The notes under the pieces are model-generated. The model was not told the origin of the DNA. It searched no databases and worked only from the letters and a program-made list of their open reading frames with translations. The position numbers and the translations under genes were made by a program. Of a DNA stretch of 64,000 nucleotides, positions 11,802-54,566 are shown in pieces. Every line of letters begins with the position of its first letter. Within the stretch, counting starts at the first letter, position 1. This DNA comes from an uncultured Clostridia bacterium (GTDB lineage: Bacteria; Bacillota; Clostridia; TANB77; CAG-508), in the NCBI GenBank assembly GCA_947625295.1, contig CANQNU010000001.1, positions 5,919 through 69,918 of the forward strand, read 5' to 3'.

Positions 11802-12280
11802 TGGAAATTACATTGATAGATATATTGCAAGAGATAAAATCACTAAAAGTAGAAATGAATCAAAGATTTGATGAACAAGAAAAGAAAATGGACGAAAAAT
11901 TGCAAAAACTAGAAGAGCGAATGGACGCAAAATTGCAAAAACTAGAAGAGCGAATGGATGCAAAATTGCAAGAACTAGAAGAACAAATGGATGTAAAATT
12001 ACTAGCTCAAAAAGAGGAAACAAATGGAAAACTAATATCATTAGAAGAACGAATGAACAAAAAGATACAAGAAATGTTTGATAAACAAACAAAAGAAATT
12101 GCAGAAGAACTAAGAGGAATTATTAAATATTTTGAAGCAAAAGAAAGATTGCAAATAAAGAAAAACGAAGAATTTGAAAAAGAATTAAAAAATAATAAAA
12201 TTGCACATGATGCTTATGATGCAAGGCTATATAAGATAGAATTAAGTCAATCAAATTTAGAATCAAAAGTTTTACAGTAG
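11802..12280 (+). CDS. Coiled-coil protein with 12-residue tandem repeats (K/E/L/Q-rich)
   Basis: RBS AAGGAGGTG. KLQKLEERMDAKLQKLEERMDAKLQELEEQMDVKL, encoded by three 36-nt DNA repeats. Confidence 0.55.
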
Positions 12281-12506: not shown

Positions 12507-13424
12507 TTGAATTTAAAAGATTTAATTTTGAAATCTAAATTGTCAATTAATCAAGAAAATATAAAATTTAATCAATCTATGAAAGAATACACAACATTTA
12601 AAATAGGTGGCCCAGCAGAATGCTTAATAAAAATAAAAAACAAACAAGATTTATTAGAAATATTAAAAATTGTAAAAAACAATAATATTAATTTTACTAT
12701 CATAGGAAATGGTAGCAATTTATTAGTGCTAGATAAAGGAATCAAAGGTATTGTTGCATTAAATCGAATAGAAAAAATACAAATTATAGAAAACAAAGAA
12801 AATACAGAACTTATAATAGGTGCAGGAACCAAAATGAGTCAAATAGCAACGAAGTTATTGCAGGAAGAAATAACAGGATTTGAAGAATTATCAGGAATAC
12901 CAGGAACAATTGGTGGAGCTGTCATTATGAACGCAGGTGCACACGGAAAAGAAATAAAAGATATTATTAAATCTGTTACTTGTATTGATTTAGATGGAAT
13001 TGAGCATGAATTTAGTAAAGAAGAATTGGTATTTGAATATAGAAATAGTAGTTTAAAACATAGTAACTATATTATAACAGAAGTTAAATTAATTCTAAAT
13101 AAAGGAAAAAGAGAGCAAATTCAAGAAAAAATGGAACAATATAAACAATATAGAAAAGAAAAACAGCCAATAGAATATCCAAGTGCAGGGAGTACTTTTA
13201 AAAGAGGAGAAAACTATATTACTGCAAAATTAATCGATGAAGCAGGACTTAAAGGATTTAAAATTGGCGGAGCAGAAGTATCAACAAAGCATAGTGGATT
13301 TGTTATAAATAAAGAAAATGCAACAGCTAAAGATGTAATAGAATTAATATCACATATAAAACAAGTGATAAAAAAGAAATTTAATAAAGATATAGAATTA
13401 GAAATAGAAATAATAGGTGAATAA
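12507..13424 (+). CDS. murB: UDP-N-acetylenolpyruvoylglucosamine reductase MurB (TTG start)
   Basis: FKIGGPAECL, GNGSNLLV, GAEVSTKHSGFVIN. Confidence 0.9.
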   Translation: MNLKDLILKSKLSINQENIKFNQSMKEYTTFKIGGPAECLIKIKNKQDLLEILKIVKNNNINFTIIGNGSNLLVLDKGIKGIVALNRIEKIQIIENKENTELIIGAGTKMSQIATKLLQEEITGFEELSGIPGTIGGAVIMNAGAHGKEIKDIIKSVTCIDLDGIEHEFSKEELVFEYRNSSLKHSNYIITEVKLILNKGKREQIQEKMEQYKQYRKEKQPIEYPSAGSTFKRGENYITAKLIDEAGLKGFKIGGAEVSTKHSGFVINKENATAKDVIELISHIKQVIKKKFNKDIELEIEIIGE

Positions 13425-13466
13425 TAAAAAATTGCGTGGTATGGGATAAGAAAGGAAGAATAAAAA

Positions 13467-15230
13467 ATGAAAGGTTTGTCACAATGGTTTAAAGCAAGCA
13501 ATAAAATGAAAAGATGGATTTTCCTAATATTAATAGGAATTATACTAGCTTGTTATGGATTAGCAGAAATATTAGTAATGGAAGAAATTTCATTTCAAGA
13601 AGTTGGAAAAGTAGTAGTTATATTTGTAATAGGATTTATCTCAATTGTATTAGGCTTAGTATTCTTAAATAAAAGAACATTAGAGATACTAATAGAATCA
13701 ACAGATGACAGAATGGAAAATAAAAATAATGTAAATATAAATTCACTTATTTTTAATAAAACTGTATATGATAAAGGACCAAATATTGTTGTAATTGGTG
13801 GAGGCACAGGTTTAAATACTGTTCTAGAAGGCCTAAAAAATTACACAAATAATGTAACTGCAATTGTAACAGTTTCAGATTACGGAGAAGTAGCAACAAA
13901 TTCTAGAAAAGAATTAGAATTATTACCTTTAAATGATATTAAAGACAGCATAGTTTCGTTAGCTACAAAGCATGAAGAAATAGAAAAATTAATGAATTAT
14001 GAATTTAAAAAAGGAAAATTGCAAGGAATTCATTTTTCAGATATTTATTTTTCAGCAATGAATGAAATACATGGAAATTTGGAAGATTCTATTATTAAAA
14101 GTAATGAAATATTCAATATTATTGGAAAGGTAATGCCTGTTACATTAGATGAAATGAAAATTGTAGCAGAGCTTGCAAATGGATATATTGTTGAAGAAAA
14201 ATCAAAGATTCCAGAAATAGTATCTGAAAAAATAACAAAAATAAATAGAATTTTATTGAGCCCTTCTAATTGTAAGCCAGCACCAGGAGTAATAGATATT
14301 ATAAAAAATGCAGATTGTATAATTATAGGTCCAGGTAGTTTATATACAAATGTTATTCCAAATTTACTTGTAAATGGAGTAGCAAAAGCTATAAAGGAAA
14401 GTATAGCAATTAAAGTTTATATTAGCAATATTATGACAGAACCTGGACAAACAGATAACTTCAGTGTATCAGATCATTTAAATGCTATTATCGAACATTG
14501 TGGACAAGGTATTGTAGATTATTGTATTTATGATACAGGTGAGATTATACCAGAATTTATTAAAAAATATAACTTAGAAGGACAAGATATAGTAGAACAA
14601 GATATTGAAAAAGTAAAAGGAATTAAGTTCATACAAAGAAATTTATCAATGATAGCAGACAATCATATAAGACATGATCCAAATTTGGTAGCATCTTCAA
14701 TTATTGAACTAATATGTGATGATTTGAAATATCAAGACAAACAGAATGATCCTCAATATTTAATGTTAAGTACAAAATTGAGAGAAGAAAAAAGAATTAA
14801 TAAAATAAAAAAAGGCATGGCTAAAAAAGAAAAGAAGGCTAAAAAAGGAAAAAATGTTAAAATATCAAATAAGAAAAATACAAGTAAATTTAGTAATAAA
14901 TATAGCCAAAGAATAGCATCTATTAAAGAAGCAGATGAAAAAGCAAGATTAAAAATGGAAAAAGAAGCTGCCAAAAAAGTAAAAAAAGATATCAAAACTG
15001 AAAAAGAAGCTGCTAAAAAAGTGAAAAAAGATATTAAAACTGAAAAGGAAGTAGCTAAAAAAGTAAAAAAGGAAATAAAAGAAAAAGATAAAACAACAAA
15101 AACACAAACTACTAAAAAAGCAGAAAAAACAACAAAACCTAAAAGTGCAAGAGGAAGGAAAAAGACTCCACAGCAGATAAGAGAAGAAATGATAAAAGAA
15201 TTAGAAAATAGTAATTTAAAAAATAATTAA
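13467..15230 (+). CDS. YvcK/CofD-family (UPF0052, gluconeogenesis-factor-like) protein with 2 N-terminal TM helices and a Lys-rich repetitive C-terminal tail
   Basis: NIVVIGGGTGLNTVLEGLK...VTAIVTVSDYGE core. N-terminal hydrophobic segments. C-terminal EAAKKVKKDIKTEK x3 repeats. Confidence 0.75.
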   Translation: MKGLSQWFKASNKMKRWIFLILIGIILACYGLAEILVMEEISFQEVGKVVVIFVIGFISIVLGLVFLNKRTLEILIESTDDRMENKNNVNINSLIFNKTVYDKGPNIVVIGGGTGLNTVLEGLKNYTNNVTAIVTVSDYGEVATNSRKELELLPLNDIKDSIVSLATKHEEIEKLMNYEFKKGKLQGIHFSDIYFSAMNEIHGNLEDSIIKSNEIFNIIGKVMPVTLDEMKIVAELANGYIVEEKSKIPEIVSEKITKINRILLSPSNCKPAPGVIDIIKNADCIIIGPGSLYTNVIPNLLVNGVAKAIKESIAIKVYISNIMTEPGQTDNFSVSDHLNAIIEHCGQGIVDYCIYDTGEIIPEFIKKYNLEGQDIVEQDIEKVKGIKFIQRNLSMIADNHIRHDPNLVASSIIELICDDLKYQDKQNDPQYLMLSTKLREEKRINKIKKGMAKKEKKAKKGKNVKISNKKNTSKFSNKYSQRIASIKEADEKARLKMEKEAAKKVKKDIKTEKEAAKKVKKDIKTEKEVAKKVKKEIKEKDKTTKTQTTKKAEKTTKPKSARGRKKTPQQIREEMIKELENSNLKNN

Positions 15231-15242
15231 TTGGGGGAAATT

Positions 15243-17279
15243 ATGAAATTTACGAAGGAAAAATTAAATTTAGAAGAAGGACTAAAGAAAGAATGGTTAA
15301 TTACGAATGGTATAGGGGGATTTAGTTCTTCTACAATTATAGGAGCAAATACTAGAAAATATCATGGATTATTAATTGCACCATTGACACCACCAGCAAG
15401 AAGATTTTTAATACTTTCAAAAATAGATGAAAGTATAGAAATAAGAAATAAAAAATATGATTTATATACAAATGTATGTCAAAATTATATTTCTCATGGA
15501 TATAAATATCAAGAAGAATTTAGAAAAGAATACTTACCTGTTTTTAAATATAAAGCAGGAGGAGCAGAAATTACGAAAATAGTTTGTATGGAATATGGAA
15601 AAAACACAGTAGGAGTTTATTATAAAATAAAGACAGGCAGTAGTAAAGCAAAATTAACATTAGCACCTATAATTAATTTTAGAGATTTTCATACAATGAG
15701 TACAAATCGTTACTTTAATTTAACACAACAAAATATTAAAAATAAAGTTAAACTAATTATAGATGGTAATTCACATACACCAATTTATATGAATTTATCA
15801 GAAGGCAGTTATATTCCTCATGAAAAAGATACATTTTCAAATATGTTTTATATAGAAGAAGAGAAAAGAGGATTTTATCCAGAAGAAAATCATTGCGTGC
15901 CAGGAGTTTATGAAATTGAAATACCAGCAAAACAAGAGAAAGATATTTCATTTGTATGTTCTTTAGAAGAAAATATAGAAGAAATTGATGTAAAAAAACT
16001 TATTAACAAAGAGATTGTAAGACTTGGAGAAATGATAAATGATTCAGGTTTAATTGATTATAAAAAAGAAAAAAAGACTAAGAAAGAATTAGAAGATGAT
16101 GAATTAACTAAGCAATTATTAATTTCTTCTGATAATTTTATAGCATATAGACCAAGCTTTAGATTACATACATTAATGGCAGGGTATCCATGGTTTTTGG
16201 ATTGGGGAAGAGACAGTTTAATTAGTTTTGAAGGGTTACTATTGATTCCTAAAAAATTTGAGATAGCAAAAGAAGTATTATTAACAATGACAAGAGATAT
16301 TAAATTTGGACTTGTTCCAAATGGATATTCAGGGTATGACAATAGACCTCTATATAACAGTGCAGATGCATCATTACTATTATTTGAAGCGGTTCAAAAA
16401 TATATTGAATATACAGGAGATTATAAATTTATTGAGAAAAATTTATATCAAAAATTAAAAGGAATAATAGACAACTATTGCACAGGAATAGATGTTGATG
16501 ATAATAATATTTATTTAGATTCAGATGCGTTAATTGTATCAGGAACAGATAGTACACAAAATACATGGATGGATGCTAAATGTGATGGAAAAGCAATTAC
16601 ACCAAGAAATGGAAAAGTAGTTGAAATAAATGCAATGTGGTATAATGCTAACAAAATTATGGAAGAATTAGTAAAAAAACTAGAAAATAAAACAGAGTCT
16701 AAGAAATATAAAGAATTGGCGGAAAATTGTAAAATTTATTTCAATGAAAAATTTTATAACAAACAGAAAAAATGTCTATATGATGTTTTAGGAGACTCTA
16801 AAATTAGGCCAAATCAATTATTTGCATTAAGTTTAAGTTATCCAATAGTTGATTTAGATTCTAAACAAGCAGAAAATATAATAAAAGTAGTGGAGAAAAA
16901 ATTATTAAATTCATATGGATTAAAGACGTTAGCAAAAGAAGAAGAAAACTATGTAGAAATATATGAAGGCGATAGTTTAAAAAGAGATAGTAGTTACCAT
17001 CAAGGGATTACATGGCCATGGCTTTTAGGATTATATTACAATTCATTAAAAAATAAAATAAAAAATGAAAAAGATAAAGAAAGTAAAAAAGAAACACAGG
17101 AAAAATTAGATAAATTTGTTGAAAAAACAAGAAAAACATTTAAAAAAGAATTAGAATCAAATGGATGTATTGGTAGTATAGCTGAAATTTATGATTCTGC
17201 AAAACCACAATTGCCAAAAGGTGCAATAGCACAAGGATGGAGCGTAGCAGAAATACTTAGAATTGTATTAAATAAATAA
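15243..17279 (+). CDS. Glycogen debranching enzyme family protein (amylo-alpha-1,6-glucosidase, GDE_N/GDE_C)
   Basis: RKYHGLLIAPLTPPARR N-terminal domain. GYPWFLDWGRDSLIS catalytic region. RBS GGGGGA. Confidence 0.75.
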   Translation: MKFTKEKLNLEEGLKKEWLITNGIGGFSSSTIIGANTRKYHGLLIAPLTPPARRFLILSKIDESIEIRNKKYDLYTNVCQNYISHGYKYQEEFRKEYLPVFKYKAGGAEITKIVCMEYGKNTVGVYYKIKTGSSKAKLTLAPIINFRDFHTMSTNRYFNLTQQNIKNKVKLIIDGNSHTPIYMNLSEGSYIPHEKDTFSNMFYIEEEKRGFYPEENHCVPGVYEIEIPAKQEKDISFVCSLEENIEEIDVKKLINKEIVRLGEMINDSGLIDYKKEKKTKKELEDDELTKQLLISSDNFIAYRPSFRLHTLMAGYPWFLDWGRDSLISFEGLLLIPKKFEIAKEVLLTMTRDIKFGLVPNGYSGYDNRPLYNSADASLLLFEAVQKYIEYTGDYKFIEKNLYQKLKGIIDNYCTGIDVDDNNIYLDSDALIVSGTDSTQNTWMDAKCDGKAITPRNGKVVEINAMWYNANKIMEELVKKLENKTESKKYKELAENCKIYFNEKFYNKQKKCLYDVLGDSKIRPNQLFALSLSYPIVDLDSKQAENIIKVVEKKLLNSYGLKTLAKEEENYVEIYEGDSLKRDSSYHQGITWPWLLGLYYNSLKNKIKNEKDKESKKETQEKLDKFVEKTRKTFKKELESNGCIGSIAEIYDSAKPQLPKGAIAQGWSVAEILRIVLNK

Positions 17280-38381: not shown

Positions 38382-39419
38382 ATGAGCCAATATAAATTAT
38401 CAATTATAGCAGCAGTTTATAATTTAGAGGACTATTTACCAAGATGTTTAGATGCGTTAGTAAATCAAACATTACAAGAAATAGAAATTTTATGTGTAGA
38501 CGATGGATCAACAGATTCAGCTCCCCAAATTATTGATGAATATGCAAAAAAGTATCCAAATAAAGTAAAAGCCTTTCATAAACAAAATGGAGGAGAATTT
38601 ACTACACGAAATTATGGGTTAGAAAGAGCAACTGGAGAATATGTAACATTTGTCGACACAGATGACTATGTAGAATTAGATTGGGCAGAAAAATTATATA
38701 ATGCAGCAAAAGAAAATGATGCAGACTTAGCTGTGTGTGGATTTGAAAGAATTGATTTAGATACAGGAAAAGTGGTATCAACTAATATGACTAATTTTGG
38801 AAATACTGTTAAAACTATTAATTCTAAAGATGATTTTATGCTATTTATTAATCCAGCCCCTTGGAATAAAATTTATAAATTAGAAAAAGTAAAAGATTTG
38901 AGATTCCTTAACTTTAGAGGATTTAATGATATGATATTTTTAACCAGTAGCTATACAAAAATTGAAAAAGTAGCATTTGTTCCAAATGTACTATATCATT
39001 ATTTCTTAAGATACGATTCTCAAATTCATAGTGTTAATAAACAAGACGTTGAAAACTTCAAAAAATACTTATTAGATTTAAAAAGCTTATACATAAAAGA
39101 AAAAAAATATGAAGAAATGAAATATATTTTAGATTTAATGGCGTTTATCCATTTAGGAACATCTGTTATGTATAGAGTTTCTTATGATAAAAATATTAAT
39201 ATGAAAAAAATGCTTAAAGATACAATAAAATATTTAGATGAAAATTTTTCAACATGGAGGAAATCACCTTATTTAAAATTAGGATACTCCTTAAAAAAAG
39301 GATTTACACATACTGGATTATGGGGAGTTTCTAAATTATATAAATGGAACATACCCATTGTATATATAAAATTATATCGTTTTATGATAGATAAATTAAA
39401 AATAGATATAAAATTTTAA
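38382..39419 (+). CDS. Glycosyltransferase family 2
   Basis: LSIIAAVYNLEDYLPRCLDALVNQT...LCVDDGSTD. Confidence 0.8.
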   Translation: MSQYKLSIIAAVYNLEDYLPRCLDALVNQTLQEIEILCVDDGSTDSAPQIIDEYAKKYPNKVKAFHKQNGGEFTTRNYGLERATGEYVTFVDTDDYVELDWAEKLYNAAKENDADLAVCGFERIDLDTGKVVSTNMTNFGNTVKTINSKDDFMLFINPAPWNKIYKLEKVKDLRFLNFRGFNDMIFLTSSYTKIEKVAFVPNVLYHYFLRYDSQIHSVNKQDVENFKKYLLDLKSLYIKEKKYEEMKYILDLMAFIHLGTSVMYRVSYDKNINMKKMLKDTIKYLDENFSTWRKSPYLKLGYSLKKGFTHTGLWGVSKLYKWNIPIVYIKLYRFMIDKLKIDIKF

Positions 39420-39430
39420 TAGGAGATAAT

Positions 39431-40681
39431 ATGGTAAAAAACGAACAATTTAAAAAGAACTTTATTTGGAATTTAATTGGCACAACTTTTAATGCATTTA
39501 ACTCATTATTTTTTATGGTTATAATAACAAGAATTAATGGATTAGAAGATGCAGGAATATTTACAATAGCATTTTCCACAGCATGCATATTATATATGAT
39601 TGGAATTTACGCAGGACGTATATATCAAGTTACTGAAAATGACAAAAGCATAGCAGACAAAGATTATATAGTAAACAGAATAATATCATGTTTAGCAATA
39701 ATTATAATAAGTATAGTATTTGTAATAATAAGAAAGTATGACATATATAAATCAAGTATATTTATTATTTTAGCTACATATAAAGCCTTGGAAGCATTTA
39801 GTGATGTATTTTACGGAATAATGCAAAAACAAGAACTACTAGAAAAAGCTGGAAAATCAACATTTATGAAGGCATTTATAAGTGTAATTATATTTACAAT
39901 AATAGATTGCCTAACACATAATTTAGTTTTAGCATCATTTTCAATAGTTATTACATTCTTAAGTATAATTATATTTTATGATATAAAAATAACAAGAAAA
40001 ATCATGAATAAAGACACTAAAGTAGTAGCTAATAATGTAATAACAATATTTAAGAGTGGATTTTTTACTTTTGCAATAGCATTTTTAGGTTTATATATAA
40101 CAAATGCTCCAAAATATGCTATTGATAATTTTCTAACAGAAGATATACAAGCAATATTTGGAATAATAGTTATGCCAGCAACGGTTATGGGATTACTTGC
40201 ACAATTTATAATACATCCATATTTAAATGAAATATTTGAATTATATAAAACAAATCAATATGGAAAATTAAAAAAATTATTATATAGAATTATTTTAGTT
40301 ATTTTTGGATGTGGAGTTATATGTTCCCTTGCAGGATATCTATTAGGAACACAAGTTTTAGGATTTATATACGGATTAAATCTTACATTATACAAAAATG
40401 CTTTACTTGCAATATTAGTTGCAGCAACATTTTACACTATGGCAGGAATTATTTCACCAATACTTGTAACAATGAGATATACTAAAATTCAATTTATTAT
40501 ATATATGGCAATTTCTATTATGGAATTTTTATTATGTAATATATTAGTAAGCAGACTAGAAATTAATGGAGCAATTATAGCTTATTTTGCTACAATGATT
40601 ATATATTTTATTACATTCTTTATAGTATCAATGTTTATTATAAATAAAAAACAAGCAATATCAAGTAAGGAGAATCAGTAA
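39431..40681 (+). CDS. Polysaccharide biosynthesis flippase (Wzx/MOP superfamily)
   Basis: 416 aa, about 12 TM helices. N-terminal KNFIWNLIGTTFNAFNSLFFMVIITRING, typical of Wzx. Confidence 0.65.
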   Translation: MVKNEQFKKNFIWNLIGTTFNAFNSLFFMVIITRINGLEDAGIFTIAFSTACILYMIGIYAGRIYQVTENDKSIADKDYIVNRIISCLAIIIISIVFVIIRKYDIYKSSIFIILATYKALEAFSDVFYGIMQKQELLEKAGKSTFMKAFISVIIFTIIDCLTHNLVLASFSIVITFLSIIIFYDIKITRKIMNKDTKVVANNVITIFKSGFFTFAIAFLGLYITNAPKYAIDNFLTEDIQAIFGIIVMPATVMGLLAQFIIHPYLNEIFELYKTNQYGKLKKLLYRIILVIFGCGVICSLAGYLLGTQVLGFIYGLNLTLYKNALLAILVAATFYTMAGIISPILVTMRYTKIQFIIYMAISIMEFLLCNILVSRLEINGAIIAYFATMIIYFITFFIVSMFIINKKQAISSKENQ

Positions 40682-40683
40682 TT

Positions 40684-41607
40684 ATGAACATACTATACAC
40701 ATTAAATGATAAATTTGTACCACAAGTAGCAGCAGGAATTTGCTCAGTTTGTGAAAACAATAAAGAAATGGATAATATTACATTTTATTTAATATCTAAA
40801 GAGATATCAGAAACAAATAAGAAAAAGCTAATTGATTTTGGAAAAAGCTATAATAGGGATGTAATAATAAAAGAATTAGGTGACATTAATCAATATTTTG
40901 ATTTTGAATTTGACACTACTGGATGGAATTCAATAGTACTTGCAAGACTAATTTTAGACAAATTTTTGCCAAATGAGGTAGAAAAAGTGTTATATTTAGA
41001 TGGAGATACAATTGTTAGAGGTAGTTTAGAAGAATTATGGAATACAGATTTAAAAGATTATGTCTTAGCAGCAAGCATAGAACCAACAGTTGATAAAAAA
41101 AGAAAAAATGATTTAGGATTAGAAAAATATCCATATTATAATGCAGGAGTTTTATTAGTAAACTTAAAAAAGTGGAGAGAAGAAAAAGTAGGAAAAGCAA
41201 TATTAGATTTTTACAAAAAAAATGATGGTAAATTATTTGCAAATGATCAAGATGCAATAAATGGATCATTAGTAGGAAAAATATATACTTTGTTACCAAA
41301 ATATAATTTTTACAATATATTTTATCAATATTCTTATAAATTCTTAAAAAAATTAATGAATCCAGTAAAATATTTTGAATATGAAGAATTTATAAATTGT
41401 GTAAAAGAACCTATAATAATTCACTATTTAGGAGAAGAAAGACCATGGAGAAAAGGAAATCACCACAAATATAAAAATGATTATATAAAATATTTAGATA
41501 AAACTCCATGGAAAGGACAAAATTACGAAGAAGGCTGGAATTTATATTTTATTTGTTGGGATATATTTAATTTTGTAACAAAACCATTTCCACGGATTAA
41601 GATATAA
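40684..41607 (+). CDS. Glycosyltransferase family 8. The C-terminus may extend to about 41669 if CGG at 41593 is a +1 site
   Basis: YLDGDTIVRGSLEELW, YYNAGVLLVNLKKWRE. Confidence 0.75.
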   Translation: MNILYTLNDKFVPQVAAGICSVCENNKEMDNITFYLISKEISETNKKKLIDFGKSYNRDVIIKELGDINQYFDFEFDTTGWNSIVLARLILDKFLPNEVEKVLYLDGDTIVRGSLEELWNTDLKDYVLAASIEPTVDKKRKNDLGLEKYPYYNAGVLLVNLKKWREEKVGKAILDFYKKNDGKLFANDQDAINGSLVGKIYTLLPKYNFYNIFYQYSYKFLKKLMNPVKYFEYEEFINCVKEPIIIHYLGEERPWRKGNHHKYKNDYIKYLDKTPWKGQNYEEGWNLYFICWDIFNFVTKPFPRIKI

Positions 41608-41684
41608 AATAATCAATTCATTAATACCAACATTTATGAAAATAAGAGCTAAAAATATAAAAAAGTAATAAAAAGGAGAGAAAA

Positions 41685-42668
41685 ATGGAACCAAAAATTT
41701 CAATTATAATTCCTGTATATAATGCAGAAAAATATTTACATAGGTGCTTTGAAAGTATTTTAAATAACAAATATAGTAATTTAGAGATTATACCTGTAAA
41801 TGATGGTTCAAAAGATAACTCACAAAAAATACTTGACGAATATAAAGAAAAATATCCAGATATATTTTTTCCAATATTACAAGAAAACCAAGGAATTGGA
41901 ATGGCAAGAAACAATGCTTTGGAAAAAGTTACAGGTGAATATGTGATGTTTATTGACAATGATGATTTTATAGATAATGACTATATATATTCGCATGTAA
42001 AAGAATTAGAAAATGATGATTATGATATGATATTATCAGGATATAAGAGAGTAACTGATACATCAACACAATTTAGTGTTCATTTTGATAAAGAATATCC
42101 ATGGTCAAGATATATTTCTATAGCACCTTGGGGAAGATTATATAAAACAAAATTTTTAAAAGATAATGATATCAAATTTTTGAAAACTCCTATTGGAGAA
42201 GACATATATTTTAATTTACAAACAAATACCTTGGCTAAGAAAATAAAAATTATAGGATATGAAGGTTACAATTGGTATCAAAATAGTATAAGTGTAACAA
42301 ATACAATAACAAATAAAATTAAAAAAATTGATATAATCGAATTATTAAATACTCACCTTGGGATTTTAAAAGAAAAAAATAGCATAACTGATGAAAACTA
42401 CGATATTATCCAATTATATTTTTTACTTTTAATTATACAATTTTTACAATGGACAAGTAATAAATCAACATATAAAGAAGTTAGCCAAATATATGATAAA
42501 TTATTCAATTGGATGGAAGAAAATTTTCCAAATTATAAAAAAATGAAATATTGGAAATTATCAAAAGGAGATAGACTAAAAATAAGATTAATTATTGCAA
42601 CTGTTATGAAATTTCATAAGATACATCTAGGAAAATTATTAGTATATTTATATGGAAGAACACAATAA
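41685..42668 (+). CDS. Glycosyltransferase family 2
   Basis: ISIIIPVYNAEKYLHRCFESIL...PVNDGSKDNS, FIDNDD. Confidence 0.8.
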   Translation: MEPKISIIIPVYNAEKYLHRCFESILNNKYSNLEIIPVNDGSKDNSQKILDEYKEKYPDIFFPILQENQGIGMARNNALEKVTGEYVMFIDNDDFIDNDYIYSHVKELENDDYDMILSGYKRVTDTSTQFSVHFDKEYPWSRYISIAPWGRLYKTKFLKDNDIKFLKTPIGEDIYFNLQTNTLAKKIKIIGYEGYNWYQNSISVTNTITNKIKKIDIIELLNTHLGILKEKNSITDENYDIIQLYFLLLIIQFLQWTSNKSTYKEVSQIYDKLFNWMEENFPNYKKMKYWKLSKGDRLKIRLIIATVMKFHKIHLGKLLVYLYGRTQ

Positions 42669-42745
42669 TTAAAATTATATAAAATATTAGAAGAAAAGAA
42701 GATATAGGTTATACTATTAATAGAAACAAACTGAAGGGACTGAAA

Positions 42746-43165
42746 ATGGAAAAAATAAAAGAAATATACAAAAAATATAAAGAAATTATTAATTATCTGA
42801 TTTTTGGCTTTTTAACAACAGTTATCAATTTTGTATCTTATTATATTTGTGCAAGAATATTTTTGATAGATGAGGTTATAAGCAGTATATTAGCTTGGTT
42901 TATATCAGTGCTATTTGCATACATAACAAATAAATTACTAGTATTTGATCAACATACAGATAATATAAAATTTTTAATAAAAGAGATGGTGTCATTTTTT
43001 TTAGCAAGAATAGCATCTGGAATCTTATTTGATGTAGGAACTTTTGCAGTAATGGTCAAAGTTCTTCATATAAATGATATTATATCTAAATTTATTACAC
43101 AAGTTATGACTATTATTACAAATTATTTATTAAGTAAATTAGTTATATTTAAAACAAAAAAATAA
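42746..43165 (+). CDS. gtrA: GtrA-family membrane protein
   Basis: 139 aa, 4 TM. YLIFGFLTTVINFVSYYI. Confidence 0.7.
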   Translation: MEKIKEIYKKYKEIINYLIFGFLTTVINFVSYYICARIFLIDEVISSILAWFISVLFAYITNKLLVFDQHTDNIKFLIKEMVSFFLARIASGILFDVGTFAVMVKVLHINDIISKFITQVMTIITNYLLSKLVIFKTKK

Positions 43166-43181
43166 AATGTAGGAGTTTAAT

Positions 43182-44120
43182 ATGAAAAAAGTATCACTAG
43201 TTATACCAATGTATTGCGAAGAAAAAGTAGTAGAGGAATGCTATAAAAGAGTAGTAAATATTCTAAAACAATTAGAAAATTATGAATATGAAATTATATT
43301 TATTAATGATGGAAGTACAGATAAAACATTAGAAATATTACAACAAATTGCAGAAAATGATAAACAAGTAAAAGTTATATCATTTTCTAGAAACTTTGGG
43401 CATCAAGCAGCTGTTACAGCAGGATTAAAAGAAGTAACAGGAGATGCTATAATAATTATAGATGCAGACCTTCAAGATCCACCCGAATTAATACCAGATA
43501 TGTTAAAAAAATGGGAAGAGGGAAATGAAGTTATTTATGGAAAAAGGAAAACCAGAAAAGGAGAATCAGCATTTAAACTATTAACAGCAAAAATGTTCTA
43601 TAATATGTTAAATGCATTATCAGATGTAGAAATTCCAAAAGATACAGGAGATTTCCGTTTAGTAGACAGAAAAGTAGTAGATACAATTAATGATTTACCA
43701 GAGCATAATAAATTTTTAAGAGGTTTGTTTAGTTGGGTTGGATATAAACAATATGCATATGAATATGAAAGACAAGAAAGATTTGCAGGAGAAACAAAAT
43801 ATCCATTAAAAAAGATGTTAAAATTAGCATCTGATGGGATTATCAGCTTTTCTGGAAAACCGATTAAATTAGTAGGAGCTTTAGGTATATTTTCAATAAT
43901 TATTTCTATTATTATATTGATTTATGCCTTGATTTCTTATGCTTTTAAGTTAAATAATTTGTCTGCTGGATGGACTTCTATTATGGTGGCGATTACATTT
44001 TTTGCAGGTGTGCAATTATTATCATTATGGGTTATTTCTGAATATATAGGAAGAATTTATGATGAAGCCAAAGGAAGACCGCAGTATGTTATTGACAAAA
44101 AAATAAATATTGAAAAATAA
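43182..44120 (+). CDS. gtrB: GT2 polyprenyl-phosphate (bactoprenol) glycosyltransferase, GtrB-like
   Basis: VSLVIPMYCEE...FINDGSTDKT, IIDADLQDPPE, two C-terminal TM helices. Confidence 0.8.
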   Translation: MKKVSLVIPMYCEEKVVEECYKRVVNILKQLENYEYEIIFINDGSTDKTLEILQQIAENDKQVKVISFSRNFGHQAAVTAGLKEVTGDAIIIIDADLQDPPELIPDMLKKWEEGNEVIYGKRKTRKGESAFKLLTAKMFYNMLNALSDVEIPKDTGDFRLVDRKVVDTINDLPEHNKFLRGLFSWVGYKQYAYEYERQERFAGETKYPLKKMLKLASDGIISFSGKPIKLVGALGIFSIIISIIILIYALISYAFKLNNLSAGWTSIMVAITFFAGVQLLSLWVISEYIGRIYDEAKGRPQYVIDKKINIEK

Positions 44121-44292
44121 TGTAGATTTATAACATACTTGAATATATATATACTAAAATAGCTGTAATTCCAATAATTGGCTGTATAAAATTTATTGAC
44201 AAAATATGTAGAAAAATATAAAATAAAAAAGGAACAAATTGAAAATAAATTTAAATAATAATTGTATTTTTTGAAAGGGTTGATTATTAATA

Positions 44293-46575
44293 ATGAAAAG
44301 ATTTAAATTCGTATCAAGTTTAATATTGGGTATCTTAATCTTCAATATAGTATCTGTATTAGTTTTTGCTAGTAACGCAGAAACTACACAAGTAAAAGAA
44401 GGTGTAGAAAATACGCTGCAAAATGAAAAAAAGCAAAATACAGAAAGTGCTAATACAAATTCAAATATAATGAATAGTACACAAAACAATAACACAAATG
44501 TAGCTAATAGTACTAATACAAATAACACTAATATTTCATCAAATAATACAAATACAACAACCAATAACACACAAAATAATATTAATACAAATACAGTAAA
44601 TAGTATGCAAAATTCAATTAATCAAAATACTACAGATGTGTCAGATAAAGATGAACAAATAGAATCAATAAATTCAGGAATAATGTTAACAAGTACACAA
44701 GAAACAATAGGAGTTCAATATAGAGCTCATATTCAAGACAGTGGATGGTCAGATTATGCTCAAGATGGAGCAACAATAGGAAAAATTAACAGTGGAAAGA
44801 GAATGGAAGCTATTAATATTAAACTATTAAATGGACCAGCAAATGCAAAGATTGAGTATCAAAGTCATGTTCAAGACATAGGATGGCAAAGCTGGGCATC
44901 AAATGGAGCATTGTCTGGAACAGAAGGTAGATCAAAAAGAATTGAAGCTATAAAAATCCGTCTTGTGAATGTATCTGACTATAGTGTAGAATATAGGACA
45001 TATGTACAAGGTCAAGGATGGCAAAAATGGAAAAAAGATGGGGAACAATCAGGAACAGTTGGAGAAAATGCAAGAATAGAATCTATTCAAATAAAAATAA
45101 CAAAAAAATCTGAAATAACTCAAGAACCAGAAGTACAATATCAAGCACATGTACAAAATGTAGGATGGCAAGAAAAAGTAGTTGAATGCATAGCAGGAAC
45201 AACAGGTAAAGCTCAAAATATGGAAGGTATAAAGATTACATTAAATGAAATGCCAGCAGGAGGTAAAATTACATATCAAGCTCATGTTCAAGATATAGGA
45301 TGGCAAAATTGGGTATCAAATGGAGCCTTAGCTGGAACACAAGGAAAATCAAAAGCAATAGAAGCAATAAAAATTAAACTAGAAAATATGTCAGGATATA
45401 GTGTAGAATATAGAGTTCATGTATCAGGATATGGATGGCAAAAATGGAAAAAGAATGGAGAAATTGCAGGTACAACAGGATGTTCAAGAAGTGTTGAAGC
45501 AATCCAGATTAGAATTGTAAACTCAAATTTAGAAAAGGTAGAACCAGAAGTTACATATCAAACACACATTCAAGATGTTGGATGGCAACAAATGATGACA
45601 GAAGGATTTCTTTCAGGAACAGAAGGTAAAGCAAAAAGACTAGAAGCAATAAGAATACAATTACAAGATGTGCCAAGTGGAGCAAAAATTGAATATAAGA
45701 CACATATTCAAGATATTGGATGGCAAGAATGGAAATCAGATGGAGAGCTATCAGGAACAGAAGGTAAAGCTAAAAGATTAGAAGCAATTCAAATAAGACT
45801 ACAAGGGTTAGATCAATATACAGTAGAATATCAAGTACATATTCAAGATTATGGTTGGAGTCAATGGTATATTGATGGGGAAACAGCAGGAACAGTTGGA
45901 CAAGGTAAAAGACTAGAAGCAATAAAAATTAGAATTGTTTCAAAATATAAAAGACAATATAAAGGAATTGATGTAAGTCAATGGAATGGAAGCAATATCA
46001 ATTGGAAACAAGTAAAAGCTTCTGGAATTGATTTCGTCATGATAAGATGCGGATATAGAGGAGCTACATCAGGTGGATTATATGTAGACAATTGCTTTAA
46101 GAAAAATATTGAAGGAGCACAAGCAGCAGGAATTAATGTTGGAGTATACTTCTTCCCAGCATCAATAAATGTAACAGAAGCAGTTGAAGAGGCAAACTAT
46201 GTAGCAGATTTACTAAAAGACTATAAAATTAAATATCCAGTAGCAATTGATTCAGAAACAGCACTAAATGACGCAACAGGAAGAGCTGATAAACTAGATA
46301 AACAAACAAGAACAGATACAATTGTTGCATTCTGCAATGCAATACAAGCAAAAGGATATACACCAATGGTATATGCTAGTAGAGATTGGTATTACAATAA
46401 CTTAGATTATTCAAGACTTTCTCAATATGATATATGGTTAGCACATTATACAGGAAGTGCATCAAAATTATCAGACTTTAAGTATAAATATCATATGTGG
46501 CAATATACAAGTTCAGGAAGTATATCTGGAATTTCAGGGAATGTAGATGTAAATATAGGATATAAAAAATATTAG
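44293..46575 (+). CDS. Secreted cell-wall hydrolase: signal peptide, Asn/Thr-rich linker, 9 ChW repeats, C-terminal GH25 muramidase
   Basis: Repeats YQAHVQDIGWQ.W...G..GT.G..R.EAI.I. GH25 motif GIDVSQWNGSINWKQVKASGIDFVMIRCGYRG. Confidence 0.8.
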   Translation: MKRFKFVSSLILGILIFNIVSVLVFASNAETTQVKEGVENTLQNEKKQNTESANTNSNIMNSTQNNNTNVANSTNTNNTNISSNNTNTTTNNTQNNINTNTVNSMQNSINQNTTDVSDKDEQIESINSGIMLTSTQETIGVQYRAHIQDSGWSDYAQDGATIGKINSGKRMEAINIKLLNGPANAKIEYQSHVQDIGWQSWASNGALSGTEGRSKRIEAIKIRLVNVSDYSVEYRTYVQGQGWQKWKKDGEQSGTVGENARIESIQIKITKKSEITQEPEVQYQAHVQNVGWQEKVVECIAGTTGKAQNMEGIKITLNEMPAGGKITYQAHVQDIGWQNWVSNGALAGTQGKSKAIEAIKIKLENMSGYSVEYRVHVSGYGWQKWKKNGEIAGTTGCSRSVEAIQIRIVNSNLEKVEPEVTYQTHIQDVGWQQMMTEGFLSGTEGKAKRLEAIRIQLQDVPSGAKIEYKTHIQDIGWQEWKSDGELSGTEGKAKRLEAIQIRLQGLDQYTVEYQVHIQDYGWSQWYIDGETAGTVGQGKRLEAIKIRIVSKYKRQYKGIDVSQWNGSNINWKQVKASGIDFVMIRCGYRGATSGGLYVDNCFKKNIEGAQAAGINVGVYFFPASINVTEAVEEANYVADLLKDYKIKYPVAIDSETALNDATGRADKLDKQTRTDTIVAFCNAIQAKGYTPMVYASRDWYYNNLDYSRLSQYDIWLAHYTGSASKLSDFKYKYHMWQYTSSGSISGISGNVDVNIGYKKY

Positions 46576-46585
46576 AATTAATAAG

Positions 46586-46620
46586 AAAAAGTACAAGAAA
46601 AAGCTTGTACTTTTTTATTT
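46586..46620 (+). terminator. Rho-independent terminator
   Basis: aaaaagtacaag-aaaaagc-ttgtactttttt. Confidence 0.65.
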
Positions 46621-46664
46621 TAAATGATATTATATACACGTGAAATTAGAAAGGAAGTGTAAGT

Positions 46665-47531
46665 ATGAAAATACTAATTACAGGAGCAAACGGAATGCTT
46701 GCAAAATCTGTAAGAAAAAGATTAGAAAAAAATGAATTAATTTGTACTGATGTAGAAGATTTAGATATAACAGATGAAAATGCTGTATTAAAATTTGTAG
46801 AAGAAAAACAACCAGAATATATAATTAACTGTGCTGCATATACAGCAGTTGATAAAGCAGAAGAAGCAGGAGAAATTGTAGAAAAAATCAATGCAATTGG
46901 ACCAGAAAATTTGGCAAAAGCTGCAAAAAGTATAGATATTCCACTAATACATATTAGTACAGATTATGTATTTGGAGGAAATTTAGATATTGAAAAAGTA
47001 TACAAAGAAGAAGATGCAAAAGCACCTGTAACAGCATATGGAATTACAAAATTACACGGAGAAGAAAAAATAAAAGAAAATACTGATAAATATTATATAT
47101 TTAGAACAGCATGGTTATATGGAGACGGAAATAACTTTGTAAGAACAATGCTTAAACTAGGAGAGCAAAAAGACGAAATTAGTGTAGTATGTGATCAACA
47201 TGGATCTCCTACATATGCAGAGGATTTAGCAAATATAATAGGAGAAGCGATTGAAAAGAAAATACCATATGGTATATATCATGCAACAAATCAAGGATAT
47301 ACAACATGGTATGATTTTACAAAGGCAATATTTGAATATGCAGGTATAATATGCAAAGTAAATCCAGTTACAACAGAAGAATACATTGAAATGATGAAAG
47401 TTACTCAAGCCAAAAGACCAAAAAATTCTCAATTATCAAAAGAAAAATTATTAGCACAAGGTATTACAGTACCTGATTGGGAAGATGCTTTAAAAAGATA
47501 TTTGCAAGAAGAAGGCAAAATTGAAAAATAA
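46665..47531 (+). CDS. rfbD: dTDP-4-dehydrorhamnose reductase
   Basis: MKILITGANGMLA. 288 aa. Confidence 0.85.
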   Translation: MKILITGANGMLAKSVRKRLEKNELICTDVEDLDITDENAVLKFVEEKQPEYIINCAAYTAVDKAEEAGEIVEKINAIGPENLAKAAKSIDIPLIHISTDYVFGGNLDIEKVYKEEDAKAPVTAYGITKLHGEEKIKENTDKYYIFRTAWLYGDGNNFVRTMLKLGEQKDEISVVCDQHGSPTYAEDLANIIGEAIEKKIPYGIYHATNQGYTTWYDFTKAIFEYAGIICKVNPVTTEEYIEMMKVTQAKRPKNSQLSKEKLLAQGITVPDWEDALKRYLQEEGKIEK

Positions 47532-47560
47532 TTTTTAAAACTAAAACGCAGTAAGAAAGG

Positions 47561-48475
47561 ATGAGAAAAATGAAAAACAGAAAGGGAATTATATTAGCTG
47601 GAGGAAGTGGAACAAGACTATATCCATTAACAATTGCAATATCAAAACAAATAATGCCAGTATATGACAAACCAATGATTTATTATCCATTATCAGTTCT
47701 AATGGAAGCAAACATTAGAGAAGTATTAATAATTTCAACTCCAAGAGATATTACAATTTTTAAAGAGTTATTAGGAGATGGAGCCCAATGGGGAATGCAC
47801 TTTGAATACAAAGTGCAAGAAAAACCTAATGGATTAGCAGAAGCATTTATTATAGGAGAAGAATTCATAGGAGAAGATAATGTTGCTATGATATTAGGAG
47901 ATAATATGTTTTATGGATCACACTTACCAGAAATTCTAAAAAGAGCAAATGCAAGAGAAAACGAATCAACAATTTTTGGATACTATGTAAAAGATCCAAG
48001 AGCATATGGAGTTGTAGAAATAGATAAAGACGGAAAAGCAATATCAATTGAAGAAAAACCAGAAAAACCAAAATCAAATTATGCAGTACCAGGACTATAT
48101 TTCTATACTAATGACGTTATAGAAATTGCAAAAAATGTAAAACCATCAGCAAGAGGCGAACTAGAAATAACATCAGTAAATGACGAATACATGAAAAAAG
48201 GAAAACTAAAAGTAGAAAAAATAGGAAGAGGAATGACATGGTTTGACACAGGAACACATGATGCATTATTAGAAACAGCAAGCTTTGTACAAACAATAGA
48301 AAAAAGACAAGGAATGCAAGTAAGTTGTCCAGAAGAAATAGCATATAAAAATGGATGGATAACAGTAGAAAAATTATCAGAACTAGCAGACAAATACATG
48401 AAAACAGAATACGGACAATATTTAAAAGATTTAGCTACAATGTCAATAGAGACGGATTTTTTTGACAACGAATAA
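47561..48475 (+). CDS. rfbA: Glucose-1-phosphate thymidylyltransferase
   Basis: [16 protein letters not shown]. Confidence 0.9.
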
Positions 48476-48512
48476 TGTCAATAGGGACGGGCCTTTTTGA
48501 CAACGAATAAAA
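48441..48512 (+). repeat. Tandem ~36-nt duplication. The last 11 codons of rfbA are repeated, in diverged form, after the stop
   Basis: atgtcaatagagacggatttttttgacaacgaataa / tgtcaatagggacgggcctttttgacaacgaataa. Confidence 0.8.
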
Positions 48513-48590
48513 ATTATTAAATGATAGATAATAAATTTGTTCAAGAATTCGTCTAAATTATAAACAAATTCTAAAATTAACAAAGAAGGA

Positions 48591-49178
48591 GTGAAAAAAT
48601 TGGGAAAGTTTAAAAAAATAGAGACTTCAATTGACGGAGTATATGTAATTGAACCATCTGTATTTGGAGATAATAGAGGATATTTTATGGAGACATATAG
48701 TAAAGCTGAATTTGAAGAGATTGGTTTAAATTATAATTTTGTACAAGATAATCAATCTAAATCTAGCAGAGGAGTTTTAAGAGGATTACATTTTCAAAAA
48801 GAAAACACACAAGCAAAATTAGTTAGATGTATAAAAGGAGAAGTATTTGATGTTGCAGTAGACTTAAGACCAGGAAGTAAGACATATGGAAAATGGGAAG
48901 GTGTAATTTTATCTGAAGAAAATAAAAAAATGTTTATGATACCTAGAGGATTTGCACATGGATTTTTAGTATTATCAGATGAAGCAGAATTCACTTATAA
49001 ATGTGATGATATATATAATCATGAAGCAGAAGGAGGACTTGCATGGAATGATCCAGATGTAGGTATAGATTGGCCTTTAGGAGATATTAAAGTAGCAGAC
49101 TTACTAACATCTGAAAAAGATGCAAAATGGCCATCACTAAAAGAATTAAAAGAAACAGATTTATTTAAGGGATTATAG
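48591..49178 (+). CDS. rfbC: dTDP-4-dehydrorhamnose 3,5-epimerase (GTG start 48591 or TTG 48600)
   Basis: GVYVIEPSVFGDNRGYFMETY, RGLHFQ. Confidence 0.85.
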   Translation: MKKLGKFKKIETSIDGVYVIEPSVFGDNRGYFMETYSKAEFEEIGLNYNFVQDNQSKSSRGVLRGLHFQKENTQAKLVRCIKGEVFDVAVDLRPGSKTYGKWEGVILSEENKKMFMIPRGFAHGFLVLSDEAEFTYKCDDIYNHEAEGGLAWNDPDVGIDWPLGDIKVADLLTSEKDAKWPSLKELKETDLFKGL

Positions 49179-49288
49179 AAGACATTTCTTAAAATCTATC
49201 TTAAAAAGGAAAAAGGGATTTCATTCTTAATGAAAAAAGACAAAGGTTTGTCCCTAAATTCCTAAAGGAAAAGAAAGGAAAAAGAAGA

Positions 49289-50257
49289 ATGAGTAAAAAT
49301 GTATTAGTAACAGGAGCAGCAGGTTTCATAGGAGCAAATTTTGCAGAGTATTTTGTAAATAAGCACCCAGATTATAAGGTAATAGTAGTAGATAAATTAA
49401 CATATGCAGGAAATTTGGACAATCTAAAAAAAGTACAAGATAAGATAACTTTTGTGCAAGCAGATATATGTGATTTTGAAAAAATGAAAGAAATTTTTGA
49501 TAAATATGATATTAATGGAGTAATTCATTTTGCAGCAGAATCACATGTTGATAATAGTATTAAAAATCCATTTGTATTTACACAAACAAATGTAATTGGA
49601 ACACATACATTACTTGAAACTGCAAAACAAAAATGGGGAGAAGGTAGTCCTAATAAATTTGTACATATTTCTACTGATGAAGTGTATGGTTCATTAGGGG
49701 AAGACGGATATTTTACAGAAACATCACCTATAAAACCAAGTAGTCCATATTCATCATCAAAAGCAAGTTCAGATTTAATTGCACTTGCATATAAAGAAAC
49801 ATATAAAATGAATATTAATGTAACAAATTGTTCAAACAATTATGGTCCATATCAACATAATGAAAAATTAATTCCACATATGATTAAATTAGCTCTAAAT
49901 AACGAAAAATTGCCTGTATATGGAACAGGAAAAAATATTAGAGATTGGTTATATGTAGAAGATCATTGTGAAGCAATAGATTTAGTATTTCATAAGGGAG
50001 TATCTGGAGAAAGATACAATATAGGTGGACACAATGAAAAAAGAAATATAGAAATTGTAAAATTAATTTTACAAAGATTAGGAAAATCAGAAGATTTAAT
50101 AGAATATGTAGAAGATAGAAAAGGACATGACTATAGATATGCAATTGATCCAACAAAAATTAAAAATGAACTTGGTTGGTATCCAAAAACAAAATTCGAG
50201 GATGGAATTGTAAAAACAATCGATTGGTATTTAGAAAACCCTGATTGGTTAAAGTAA
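49289..50257 (+). CDS. rfbB: dTDP-glucose 4,6-dehydratase
   Basis: VLVTGAAGFIGANF, YSSSKASSD. Confidence 0.9.
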   Translation: MSKNVLVTGAAGFIGANFAEYFVNKHPDYKVIVVDKLTYAGNLDNLKKVQDKITFVQADICDFEKMKEIFDKYDINGVIHFAAESHVDNSIKNPFVFTQTNVIGTHTLLETAKQKWGEGSPNKFVHISTDEVYGSLGEDGYFTETSPIKPSSPYSSSKASSDLIALAYKETYKMNINVTNCSNNYGPYQHNEKLIPHMIKLALNNEKLPVYGTGKNIRDWLYVEDHCEAIDLVFHKGVSGERYNIGGHNEKRNIEIVKLILQRLGKSEDLIEYVEDRKGHDYRYAIDPTKIKNELGWYPKTKFEDGIVKTIDWYLENPDWLK

Positions 50258-50301
50258 TTGAGCTAAATACAAAAAAATAAAGTATTGGATGTTGAATATA
50301 T

Positions 50302-53289: not shown

Positions 53290-54566
<1,277 letters not shown>

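Follow-up and report, generated by a model that had tools for sequence, protein, structure and literature searches.

A 64,000-nucleotide (nt) stretch of DNA from an uncultured Clostridia bacterium (contig CANQNU010000001.1; this whole 64-kb stretch is called the window below) carries, directly downstream of murB, a gene for a 587-amino-acid (aa) protein of the YvcK/GlmR family. The protein is probably the positional ortholog of the clostridial membrane-anchored YvcK/GlmR, remodelled in a group of low-GC gut Clostridia (~25% guanine plus cytosine) into a ligand-binding scaffold or regulator. Its distinctive features are the loss of the DDGGSSG motif and the conserved modules of its C-terminal tail; the membrane anchor and the tail repeats are its least distinctive ones. 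The preliminary description of this DNA, which dwelt on the anchor and the repeats, missed the main point, namely the replacement of DDGGSSG and of other invariant residues of the family. It is still argued whether GlmR/YvcK is an enzyme (an accessory uridyltransferase) or a regulator (an activator of GlmS and a sensor of UDP-N-acetylglucosamine, UDP-GlcNAc). The clade described here offers a natural test case, with the catalytic Asp-pair motif replaced, while the ligand residues and the protein as a whole are under strong purifying selection in at least 80 species. To our knowledge, the mechanistic work on YvcK has so far all been done on the soluble proteins of Bacilli and actinobacteria.

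Membership in the YvcK/CofD family, already proposed in the preliminary description, is clear from the family models. PF01933 (CofD) matches residues 107–393 with 275.8 bits against a cutoff of 30 (E 5e-82), and TIGR01826, the NCBIfam model of YvcK, matches residues 107–415 with 281.9 bits against a cutoff of 196. An AlphaFold2 (AF2) model, built on an 86-sequence alignment, was matched by Foldseek to the Bacillus halodurans YvcK structures 2HZB/2O2Z with an E value of 4e-35, a TM-score (target) of 0.92, and a root mean square deviation of 2.2 Å. The predicted local distance difference test score (pLDDT) of the core exceeds 90 and falls to 69–81 over the remodelled loop. Two other families were ruled out by model score: CofD/FbiA, the 2-phospho-L-lactate transferase of F420 synthesis (TIGR01819, 19 bits against a cutoff of 257), and the CofD-like protein of the GAK system (TIGR04357, 94.9 bits against 340). 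For CofD/FbiA, the fold match to 3C3D/6UVX reached a TM-score of only ~0.6.

The putative catalytic loop of the core has been rewritten. When the protein is aligned with B. halodurans YvcK (2HZB/2O2Z), the canonical TAIVTVADDGGSSGRLRKEL pairs with TAIVTVSDYGEVATNSRKEL of the window protein without gaps; that is, DDGGSSGRLR reads DYGEVATNSR, with Tyr139 in place of the second Asp of the DD pair. For clade counts, GTDB was scanned with one genome for each species; 270 species had a relative, and the best 80 of these were taken; together with the window protein they give 81 sequences, and DYG[EDS] is found in 81/81. The clade was compared with 99 canonical representatives, whose residues are given here in B. 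halodurans numbering. At eight positions where the canonical set shows no variation (100% invariant), every clade member has a different, fixed residue: G40 is replaced by E141, G43 by T144, R58 by K159, R78 by E179, G91 by S191, N92 by D192, S191 by N295, and E224 by Q328. The near-invariant S41, S42, L45, P54, G144, E145, and Q221 are changed too, and in more distant tailed relatives the motif is eroded further (SNYGENLDKD, SESEESSNF, SENVKDKE, and EDNIQNIS). The D38A/D39A variant of B. subtilis GlmR is catalytically inactive and does not complement (PMC13046274), and the Listeria D40A/D41A/N198A variant has ~100-fold lower uridyltransferase activity (PMC10128056).

The ligand site has been kept. 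In 2O2Z, the dinucleotide is contacted by four residues (T13, N217, Y264, and R300), which correspond to T114, N321, Y368, and R402 of the window protein and are conserved in the clade. In B. subtilis, UDP-GlcNAc binding is influenced by T14, N218, Y265, and R301 and is lost in the Y265A and R301A variants (PMC5482804). The core also retains GGGTG, GPGSLYT, N299, and R402-H403, and Pro405 stands where B. subtilis has the PrkC phosphosite T304. Across the 80 species, the protein is 67–91% identical, a value like those of its neighbours GDE (see below) and holA and above that of murB (~60%). By these comparisons, the remodelled core is a constrained new state under purifying selection and not a product of decay.

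The soluble GlmR (YvcK, ~320 aa) of B. subtilis and L. monocytogenes and the window protein have in common the family models, the fold, the GGGTG loop, GPGSLYT, and the four nucleotide-sugar contact residues. They differ in the DDGGSSG motif (DYGEVAT in the window protein), in the other substitutions listed above (R58K, R78E, G91S, N92D, S191N, E224Q, and Pro405 for T304), in a 103-aa N-terminal module with two transmembrane (TM) segments and a 172-aa basic tail added in the window protein, and in the window locus, which has no rapZ (yvcJ) or whiA (yvcL) as a neighbour. As two features of GlmR, the DDGGSSG motif and the rapZ/whiA context, were not found, we do not file the protein as a functional equivalent of GlmR; it is filed as a variant within a two-TM YvcK subfamily. 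The mycobacterial CuvA (Rv1422), another YvcK homolog, is linked to envelope biogenesis and nutrient use and is found at specific envelope sites; this soluble or peripheral protein carries the canonical motif and is encoded in a rapZ-cuvA-whiA operon. CuvA belongs to the same family and differs from the window protein in anchor, tail, motif, and operon, having neither a TM hairpin nor a basic tail.

The proposal that two TM helices anchor the protein at its N-terminus is well supported. Windows of 19 residues reach hydropathy maxima at residues 18–36 and 49–67 (Kyte–Doolittle 2.6 and 3.2), and AF2 predicts a helical hairpin (residues 14–37 and 43–79) with pLDDT 93–97. Conservation was scored as the mean frequency of the commonest residue in the 81 sequences, and by this measure residues 1–103 are about as conserved as the core (0.79–0.92 versus 0.88). 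Five positive and no negative charges precede TM1, and the loop between the TM segments has no positive and three negative charges; by the positive-inside rule, this +5 N-terminus and −3 loop give an N-in/C-in orientation, with core and tail in the cytoplasm. Such a topology, inferred from charge, would agree with the location of the nucleotide-sugar-binding domain, which must also be cytoplasmic. A topology prediction had been suggested as a check, and this is its outcome. The N-terminal segment contains the conserved W7 and K15-R16-W17, a signature of the two-TM subfamily. When the N-terminal 104 residues were used as the sole query, only fragments of the same clade were returned (at least 52% identity), with no new domain context; the isolated N-terminal module and the tail gave nothing meaningful against Pfam at E ≤ 10, where the best N-terminal matches (CRPA, DUF373, and DUF308) were all below cutoffs and reflected generic TM similarity. 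The nine-residue loop EEISFQEVG between the TM segments ranks with the best-conserved stretches of the sequence, a degree of conservation that exceeds the needs of a passive anchor and hints at a possible external contact.

The N-terminus is no artefact of a wrong start, which the preliminary description had considered, with GPNIVVIGGG as the place of the true one. A Shine–Dalgarno-like sequence precedes the annotated ATG, and inspection of the sequence showed none before the internal Met codons M14 and M83. Six independent metagenome contigs carry a gene call for exactly this 587-aa protein, and full-length identity of 73–99% is common to more than 120 clusters (90%-identity clusters). With the conservation of residues 1–103 and the presence of the W..KRW module in other clusters, the wrong start was ruled out.

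The membrane anchor is widespread among relatives. An exhaustive HMMER search of 1.84 billion representatives at 50% identity returned 5839 relatives, the best 150 of which were mapped for core and hydropathy; 121 of these were full-length, and their proportions are biased, as the ranking favours N-terminal matches to the query. Sixty-one of the 121 combine the canonical DDGG motif with a ~90–125-aa N-terminal extension and two TM segments. The canonical motif is accompanied by one TM segment at the threshold used in 11 and belongs to soluble proteins of ~320 aa in 24; two TM segments occur with a non-canonical motif in 15, and the remaining 10 have a non-canonical motif and other N-terminal architectures. 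The at least 61 distinct canonical two-TM clusters amount to a large subfamily despite the biased proportions, and a membrane-anchored form of YvcK is hereby documented as widespread. The window protein has the features of this subfamily: an extension of the same type, two TM segments, and W..KRW before GGGTG, the signature W..(PG)...KRW being common to it and to the canonical two-TM clusters. By this survey of domain architectures, which the preliminary description had called for, the two-TM anchor that it had singled out as unusual is widespread and inherited; what sets the clade apart is its remodelled core. Two-TM members, where the source databases name them, are labelled only 'YvcK family protein' or 'uncharacterized cofD-like protein'; a canonical member (MBI1884843.1) comes from a metagenome-assembled genome (MAG) of Chloroflexota. 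No description of a membrane-anchored YvcK turned up in our literature searches, and as far as these show, this form is uncharacterised.

The canonical two-TM YvcKs (~410–470 aa; e.g., P0272 and MBI1884843.1) are among the closest known relatives. The likeness extends to a homologous W..KRW hairpin, the same core, a counterpart of the post-core helix 417–450, and a position downstream of murB. Canonical members differ in that they keep DDGGSSGRLR and the other invariant residues, end within 0–45 residues of the core, and, in the one locus examined, have rapZ and whiA on either side. In the window clade both of these genes are missing from the locus, and four tail modules described below have been acquired: the SKF motif, a spacer, an RGR patch, and a terminal helix. 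Other architectures were also encountered in the survey. P0389 (498 aa) is a soluble YvcK-like protein with the motif DSGRSTG and a C-terminal fusion that bears a sugar-nucleotidyltransferase signature (ILAAGEGTRMRP...), which fits a putative role of the YvcK family with nucleotide sugars. P0343, P0345, P0377, P0379, P0383, and P0392 (510–580 aa) have a non-membrane N-terminal extension of 180–240 aa, and among these six the variant motifs DTGKSSG, DWGRTTG, DNGRNSG, and DAGRSSG occur.

The tail (residues 416–587) comprises 172 aa, of which 52 are Lys (30%), and has a net charge of +33; across species its length is 104–168 aa, with 20–31% Lys and a net charge of +19 to +34. It is a mosaic of conserved and variable elements. 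The elements at 417–450 and 473–493 score 0.93 and 0.89, above the core (0.88). The first of these contains DPQYLMLSTKLREEK, which matches a post-core helix of the type 'DYYYL..hK' present in canonical two-TM YvcKs ('LDYYYLSEKVK', 'LFDYYYIRQAMR', and 'LVDHYLLADRVR'), and these counterparts mark the tail helix 417–450 as ancestral. The second, the SKF motif, is found in 80/80 related species and in 10/15 distant tailed representatives and was not seen in the canonical forms inspected; on this distribution it is to be regarded as the clade-defining novelty of the tail. The terminal helix is present in 61/81 clade members and is recognisable in distant tailed relatives.

Three lysine-rich repeats had been reported in the tail, and they are indeed present, also as a 42-bp unit at the DNA level: three units of 14 aa each, EKEAAKKVKKDIKT at residues 498 and 512 and EKEVAKKVKKEIKE at residue 526. 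Their role as the functional feature of the tail did not hold up. They lie in a hypervariable, gap-rich spacer, are species-specific, and are absent even from 91%-identical relatives; AF2 predicts one long helix (474–529) that runs into the spacer, the rest of which is disordered. By alignment, the repeats are a recent species-specific expansion and not a conserved functional part. A gene for a 182-aa coiled-coil-like protein with MDAKLQKLEERMDAKLQ repeats (11732–12280) lies just upstream of murB, and the length of its product is 159 aa on one and 203 aa on the other of two near-identical contigs (L001 and L002); this variation indicates that tandem-repeat expansion is common in this genome.

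The distal part of the tail carries an RGR-type basic patch. AT-hook and RGR motifs that enter the minor groove are known from eukaryotic HMGA and Myxococcus CarD, and in the form Q/RGR from proteins of the H-NS/Lsr2 type. The likeness of the window protein to them consists in an Arg-Gly-Arg core within a Lys/Arg-rich disordered sequence in an organism of ~75% A+T. The difference lies in the missing R-G-R-P core, as the window protein reads S-A-R-G-R-K-K-T-P, with no Pro after G-R, and DNA binding is putative. Of the 81 clade members, 50 have a motif of the type K[ST]A[RK]G, and RGRGRR is the reading in 12. True AT-hooks stand at the equivalent position in P0259 and P0269 (PKRRGRPKK, PKRRGRPPK, and KKRGRGRPAT), followed by a similar terminal helix; these hooks of distant relatives offer the strongest hint, if only an indirect one, of a possible contact between the distal tail and AT-rich DNA. 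Two perfect AT-hooks are found in P0259 (687 aa), in whose genomic context (L087/L088) a NUDIX hydrolase and ftsH, rather than GDE, lie downstream and a protein with a Mac-1 (IgG-protease-like) domain lies upstream. Binding of teichoic acid by the tail, also raised earlier, is unlikely and was rejected, as the predicted topology places the tail in the cytoplasm.

As had been described, the gene lies between murB and a gene for a GDE-type homolog (an archaeal-type glycogen debranching protein); the spacings are 42 nt and 12 nt. GDE is followed by holA and then by a gene for a sleB-like hydrolase. The murB gene is adjacent in 89/89 loci examined, and GDE in 79/80 related species as well as in two more distant loci (L086 and L089). 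The order in the clade, where the contig extends far enough, is murB-yvcK*-GDE(-holA-sleB-HAD), and murB-yvcK-GDE-holA is syntenic in 79/80 species. In the one locus that represents the gene context of the canonical two-TM form, that of P0272 (444 aa), the order is murB-PHP-rapZ-yvcK-whiA; in the clade GDE occupies the place of whiA. The distant tailed P0254, P0259, and P0264 are encoded directly after murB without rapZ or whiA, and GDE is next in two of the three. The clade and its tailed relatives thus stand directly after murB as the canonical two-TM form does, which argues for positional orthology. The adjacency to murB and GDE had been taken as a sign of a link to cell-wall precursor metabolism; by gene order it looks instead like inherited murB-(PHP)-rapZ-yvcK-whiA synteny and not like a new link. 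Pfam detected no RapZ or WhiA domain among the 28 larger open reading frames (ORFs) of the window, nor were these domains found in genes around the identical protein; no second CofD-family gene was found among the same 28 ORFs or around four relatives.

Promoter-like sites at 11.5–19.3 kb are no more frequent than in shuffled sequence, and the scan of this region found no terminators; the result is compatible with co-transcription of murB-yvcK-GDE-holA and otherwise uninformative at 25% GC. The only match of an Rfam scan of the window was one tRNA, and no riboswitch or leader was found near the yvcK gene. All of the best 80 relatives belong to gut MAGs labelled uncultured Clostridia or 'Clostridium sp.', with rabbit, human (Hadza), mouse, goat, and chicken among the hosts. 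The GC content of the window (~25%) and its genes of sporulation type (one like ylbJ, with a Gate domain, and the sleB-like one) point to a low-GC, spore-forming Firmicute as the host.

We propose that the conserved N-in/C-in hairpin, inherited and common in the subfamily, would tether the YvcK-fold domain, on the cytoplasmic side, to the inner membrane face, where the core, with its four contact residues kept, probably still binds a UDP-sugar. The loss of the DDGGSSG loop and of other invariant residues, with rapZ and whiA gone from the locus, suggests that the protein is no canonical GlcNAc-1-phosphate uridyltransferase, and it is more likely to serve at the membrane as a scaffold or as a sensor of its ligand. 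A changed chemistry or specificity would be the alternative, given that the replacement motif does not itself vary within the clade. Conserved modules of the tail could dock a partner, perhaps by the terminal helix, and its polycationic parts may bind a cytoplasmic polyanion, with AT-rich DNA as the most plausible one and RNA or an anionic lipid as other candidates. The repeat region would be a length-variable spacer produced by slippage.

Several points weigh against this proposal. Lysine-rich low complexity is a common by-product of very AT-rich genomes, and the RGR patch, found in only ~60% of the clade species, has no AT-hook proline. Canonical members too vary at the second Asp (D/N/E/S); with the replacement motif strictly conserved, altered rather than lost chemistry is equally compatible with the data. 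The loss of rapZ and whiA was read at the level of the locus; these genes may have been relocated, and a canonical paralog may exist. Native S. aureus GlmR cannot replace other uridyltransferases (bioRxiv 10.64898/2026.06.23.733835), and as the catalysis of GlmR in vivo is contested, 'loss of catalysis' may overstate the change.

Remodelling into a scaffold or regulator has to be weighed against other explanations. In the simplest of these, the protein would be an ordinary clostridial YvcK/GlmR that stimulates or supplements UDP-GlcNAc synthesis as before, with a drifted motif and a functionless tail. The scores far above the family cutoffs, the unaltered fold, the four retained ligand contacts, and the place next to murB would all suit it, as would the hypervariable, slippage-prone spacer with its repeats and the repeat-number variation of the neighbouring coiled-coil gene between contigs. 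We nevertheless regard unchanged function as unlikely: eight positions invariant in the 99 canonical representatives have been replaced, with the replacements fixed in 81 sequences, rapZ and whiA are absent from the locus, and the conservation of the two tail elements does not fit a functionless appendage. It is less likely still that the gene is a neofunctionalised paralog with a new task, for example one linked to GDE, and that a canonical rapZ-yvcK-whiA cluster resides elsewhere in the genome. A remodelled catalytic motif and new modules are typical of paralogs, GDE is the neighbour in 79/80 species and again in two tailed relatives at a greater distance, and B. subtilis YvcK binds UDP-glucose too (PMC5482804). 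Against a paralog, the gene stands at the murB-adjacent position of the canonical two-TM form, and no second CofD-family gene appeared among the 28 larger ORFs or around the four relatives surveyed.

The remodelled ortholog could also be given a more specific role, which must be called improbable, more so than either of the above. As a non-catalytic, membrane-anchored UDP-sugar sensor, with its polycationic, AT-hook-like tail tethered to the AT-rich nucleoid, another polyanion, or a partner, the protein would couple the status of wall precursors or glycogen to the organisation of the chromosome or the division site and would replace RapZ and WhiA functionally. If true, the clade would hold a natural separation-of-function allele and reveal an essential role of the YvcK fold independent of uridyltransferase catalysis. 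A functional analogy may be seen in Noc, the nucleoid occlusion protein of B. subtilis, a ParB-like CTPase with an amphipathic membrane helix, as the window protein would touch both membrane and chromosome if its tail binds DNA; this analogy is speculative, and Noc shows no sequence or fold relationship to the window protein. An annotation artefact, in which an internal start and/or a frameshift in A-rich DNA hides a ~320-aa soluble YvcK, is barely credible: frameshifted essential genes do occur in the window (polC, spread over three frames, and obg, which lacks its N-terminal part) and the DNA of the tail is A-rich, but the Shine–Dalgarno-like sequence stands before ATG 13467 and before no internal Met codon, the 103 N-terminal residues and the tail elements 417–450 and 473–493 are conserved as protein across 80 species, the identical 587-aa product is found in six independent assemblies, and the N-terminal module has homologs in more than 60 other clusters.

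Table 1. Features of the yvcK gene, its product, and the adjacent genes. Positions count from the first letter of the window; conservation is the score defined in the text.
Feature	Position	Strand	Evidence and remarks
Complete ORF, 587 aa + stop, ATG start; remodelled, predicted membrane-anchored YvcK/GlmR-family protein	13467..15230	+	Pfam/NCBIfam matches; identical protein on six contigs
Shine–Dalgarno-like AAGGAAG (AAAGGAAG)	13452..13458	+	read from sequence; ends 8 nt before ATG
N-terminal segment, predicted cytoplasmic, residues 1–16, MKGLSQWFKASNKMKR	13467..13514	+	conservation 0.87; charge +5, no acidic residues
Predicted TM helix 1, residues ~17–38	13515..13580	+	hydropathy; conservation 0.87; AF2 helix 14–37, pLDDT >90
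Predicted extracytoplasmic loop, residues 39–47, EEISFQEVG, short, acidic	13581..13607	+	conservation 0.92; charge
Predicted TM helix 2, residues ~48–68	13608..13670	+	hydropathy 3.2; conservation 0.79; AF2 helix 43–79
Predicted cytoplasmic linker, residues 69–103, KRTLEILIESTDDRMEN...SLIFNKTVYD	13671..13775	+	conservation 0.91; low model confidence
YvcK/CofD-fold core, residues 104–416	13776..14714	+	family models, alignments, fold match; conservation 0.88
Remodelled motif D138-Y-G-E-V-A-T-N-S-R147	13878..13907	+	ungapped alignment to 2HZB
Tail helix, residues 417–450, CDDLKYQDKQNDPQYLMLSTKLREEKRINKIKKG / CDDLKYQDKQNDPQYLMLSTKLREEKRINKIKK	14715..14816	+	conservation 0.93; AF2 helix 429–461
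Basic linker, residues 451–472	14817..14882	+	poorly conserved (0.48); partly disordered, pLDDT <50 at 464–471 (AF2)
Clade-defining motif S-K-F-x-x-K-Y-x-x-R-I-x-S-I, residues 473–493, SKFSNKYSQRIASIKEADEKA	14883..14945	+	conservation 0.89
Hypervariable spacer, residues 494–556	14946–15134	+	conservation 0.15, 49% gaps
Tandem repeat, 42-bp unit, 3.5 copies	14945..15088	+	83% matches; within spacer
Basic patch KPKSARGRKK, residues 557–566, RGR-type, AT-hook-like	15135..15164	+	sequence
Terminal amphipathic acidic helix, residues 567–587, TPQQIREEMIKELENSNLKNN	15165..15227	+	AF2 helix 568–585
murB (UDP-N-acetylmuramate dehydrogenase), upstream, 42-nt gap	12507..13424	+	family models
GDE_N + GDE_C archaeal-type glycogen debranching homolog (TIGR01561), ATG 12 nt past stop	15243..17279	+	family models

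Elsewhere in the window, polC is divided among three ORFs in three frames (129–1478, PHP and exonuclease; 1510–2826, polymerase III alpha; 2876–3613, HHH), and a single extra base at ~1464 breaks its frame after ...IVAL. Either the break reflects an assembly or indel error, or an essential gene has become a pseudogene, and it calls for caution on single-base accuracy elsewhere in the window. The obg gene (~53290–54566) seems to be truncated at its N-terminus: its ORF starts from a TTG at 53634, and GTP1_OBG matches only from profile position 113. Upstream of this start, the obg frame stays open and reads like Obg as far as 53400 or beyond, which suggests another possible frameshift near the true start. 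At 38400–50300, genes for glycosyltransferases (GT8 and two of GT2) accompany dTDP-rhamnose genes (RmlD-, RmlA-, and RmlB-like), a block whose gene content suggests a cell-wall polysaccharide or capsule locus.

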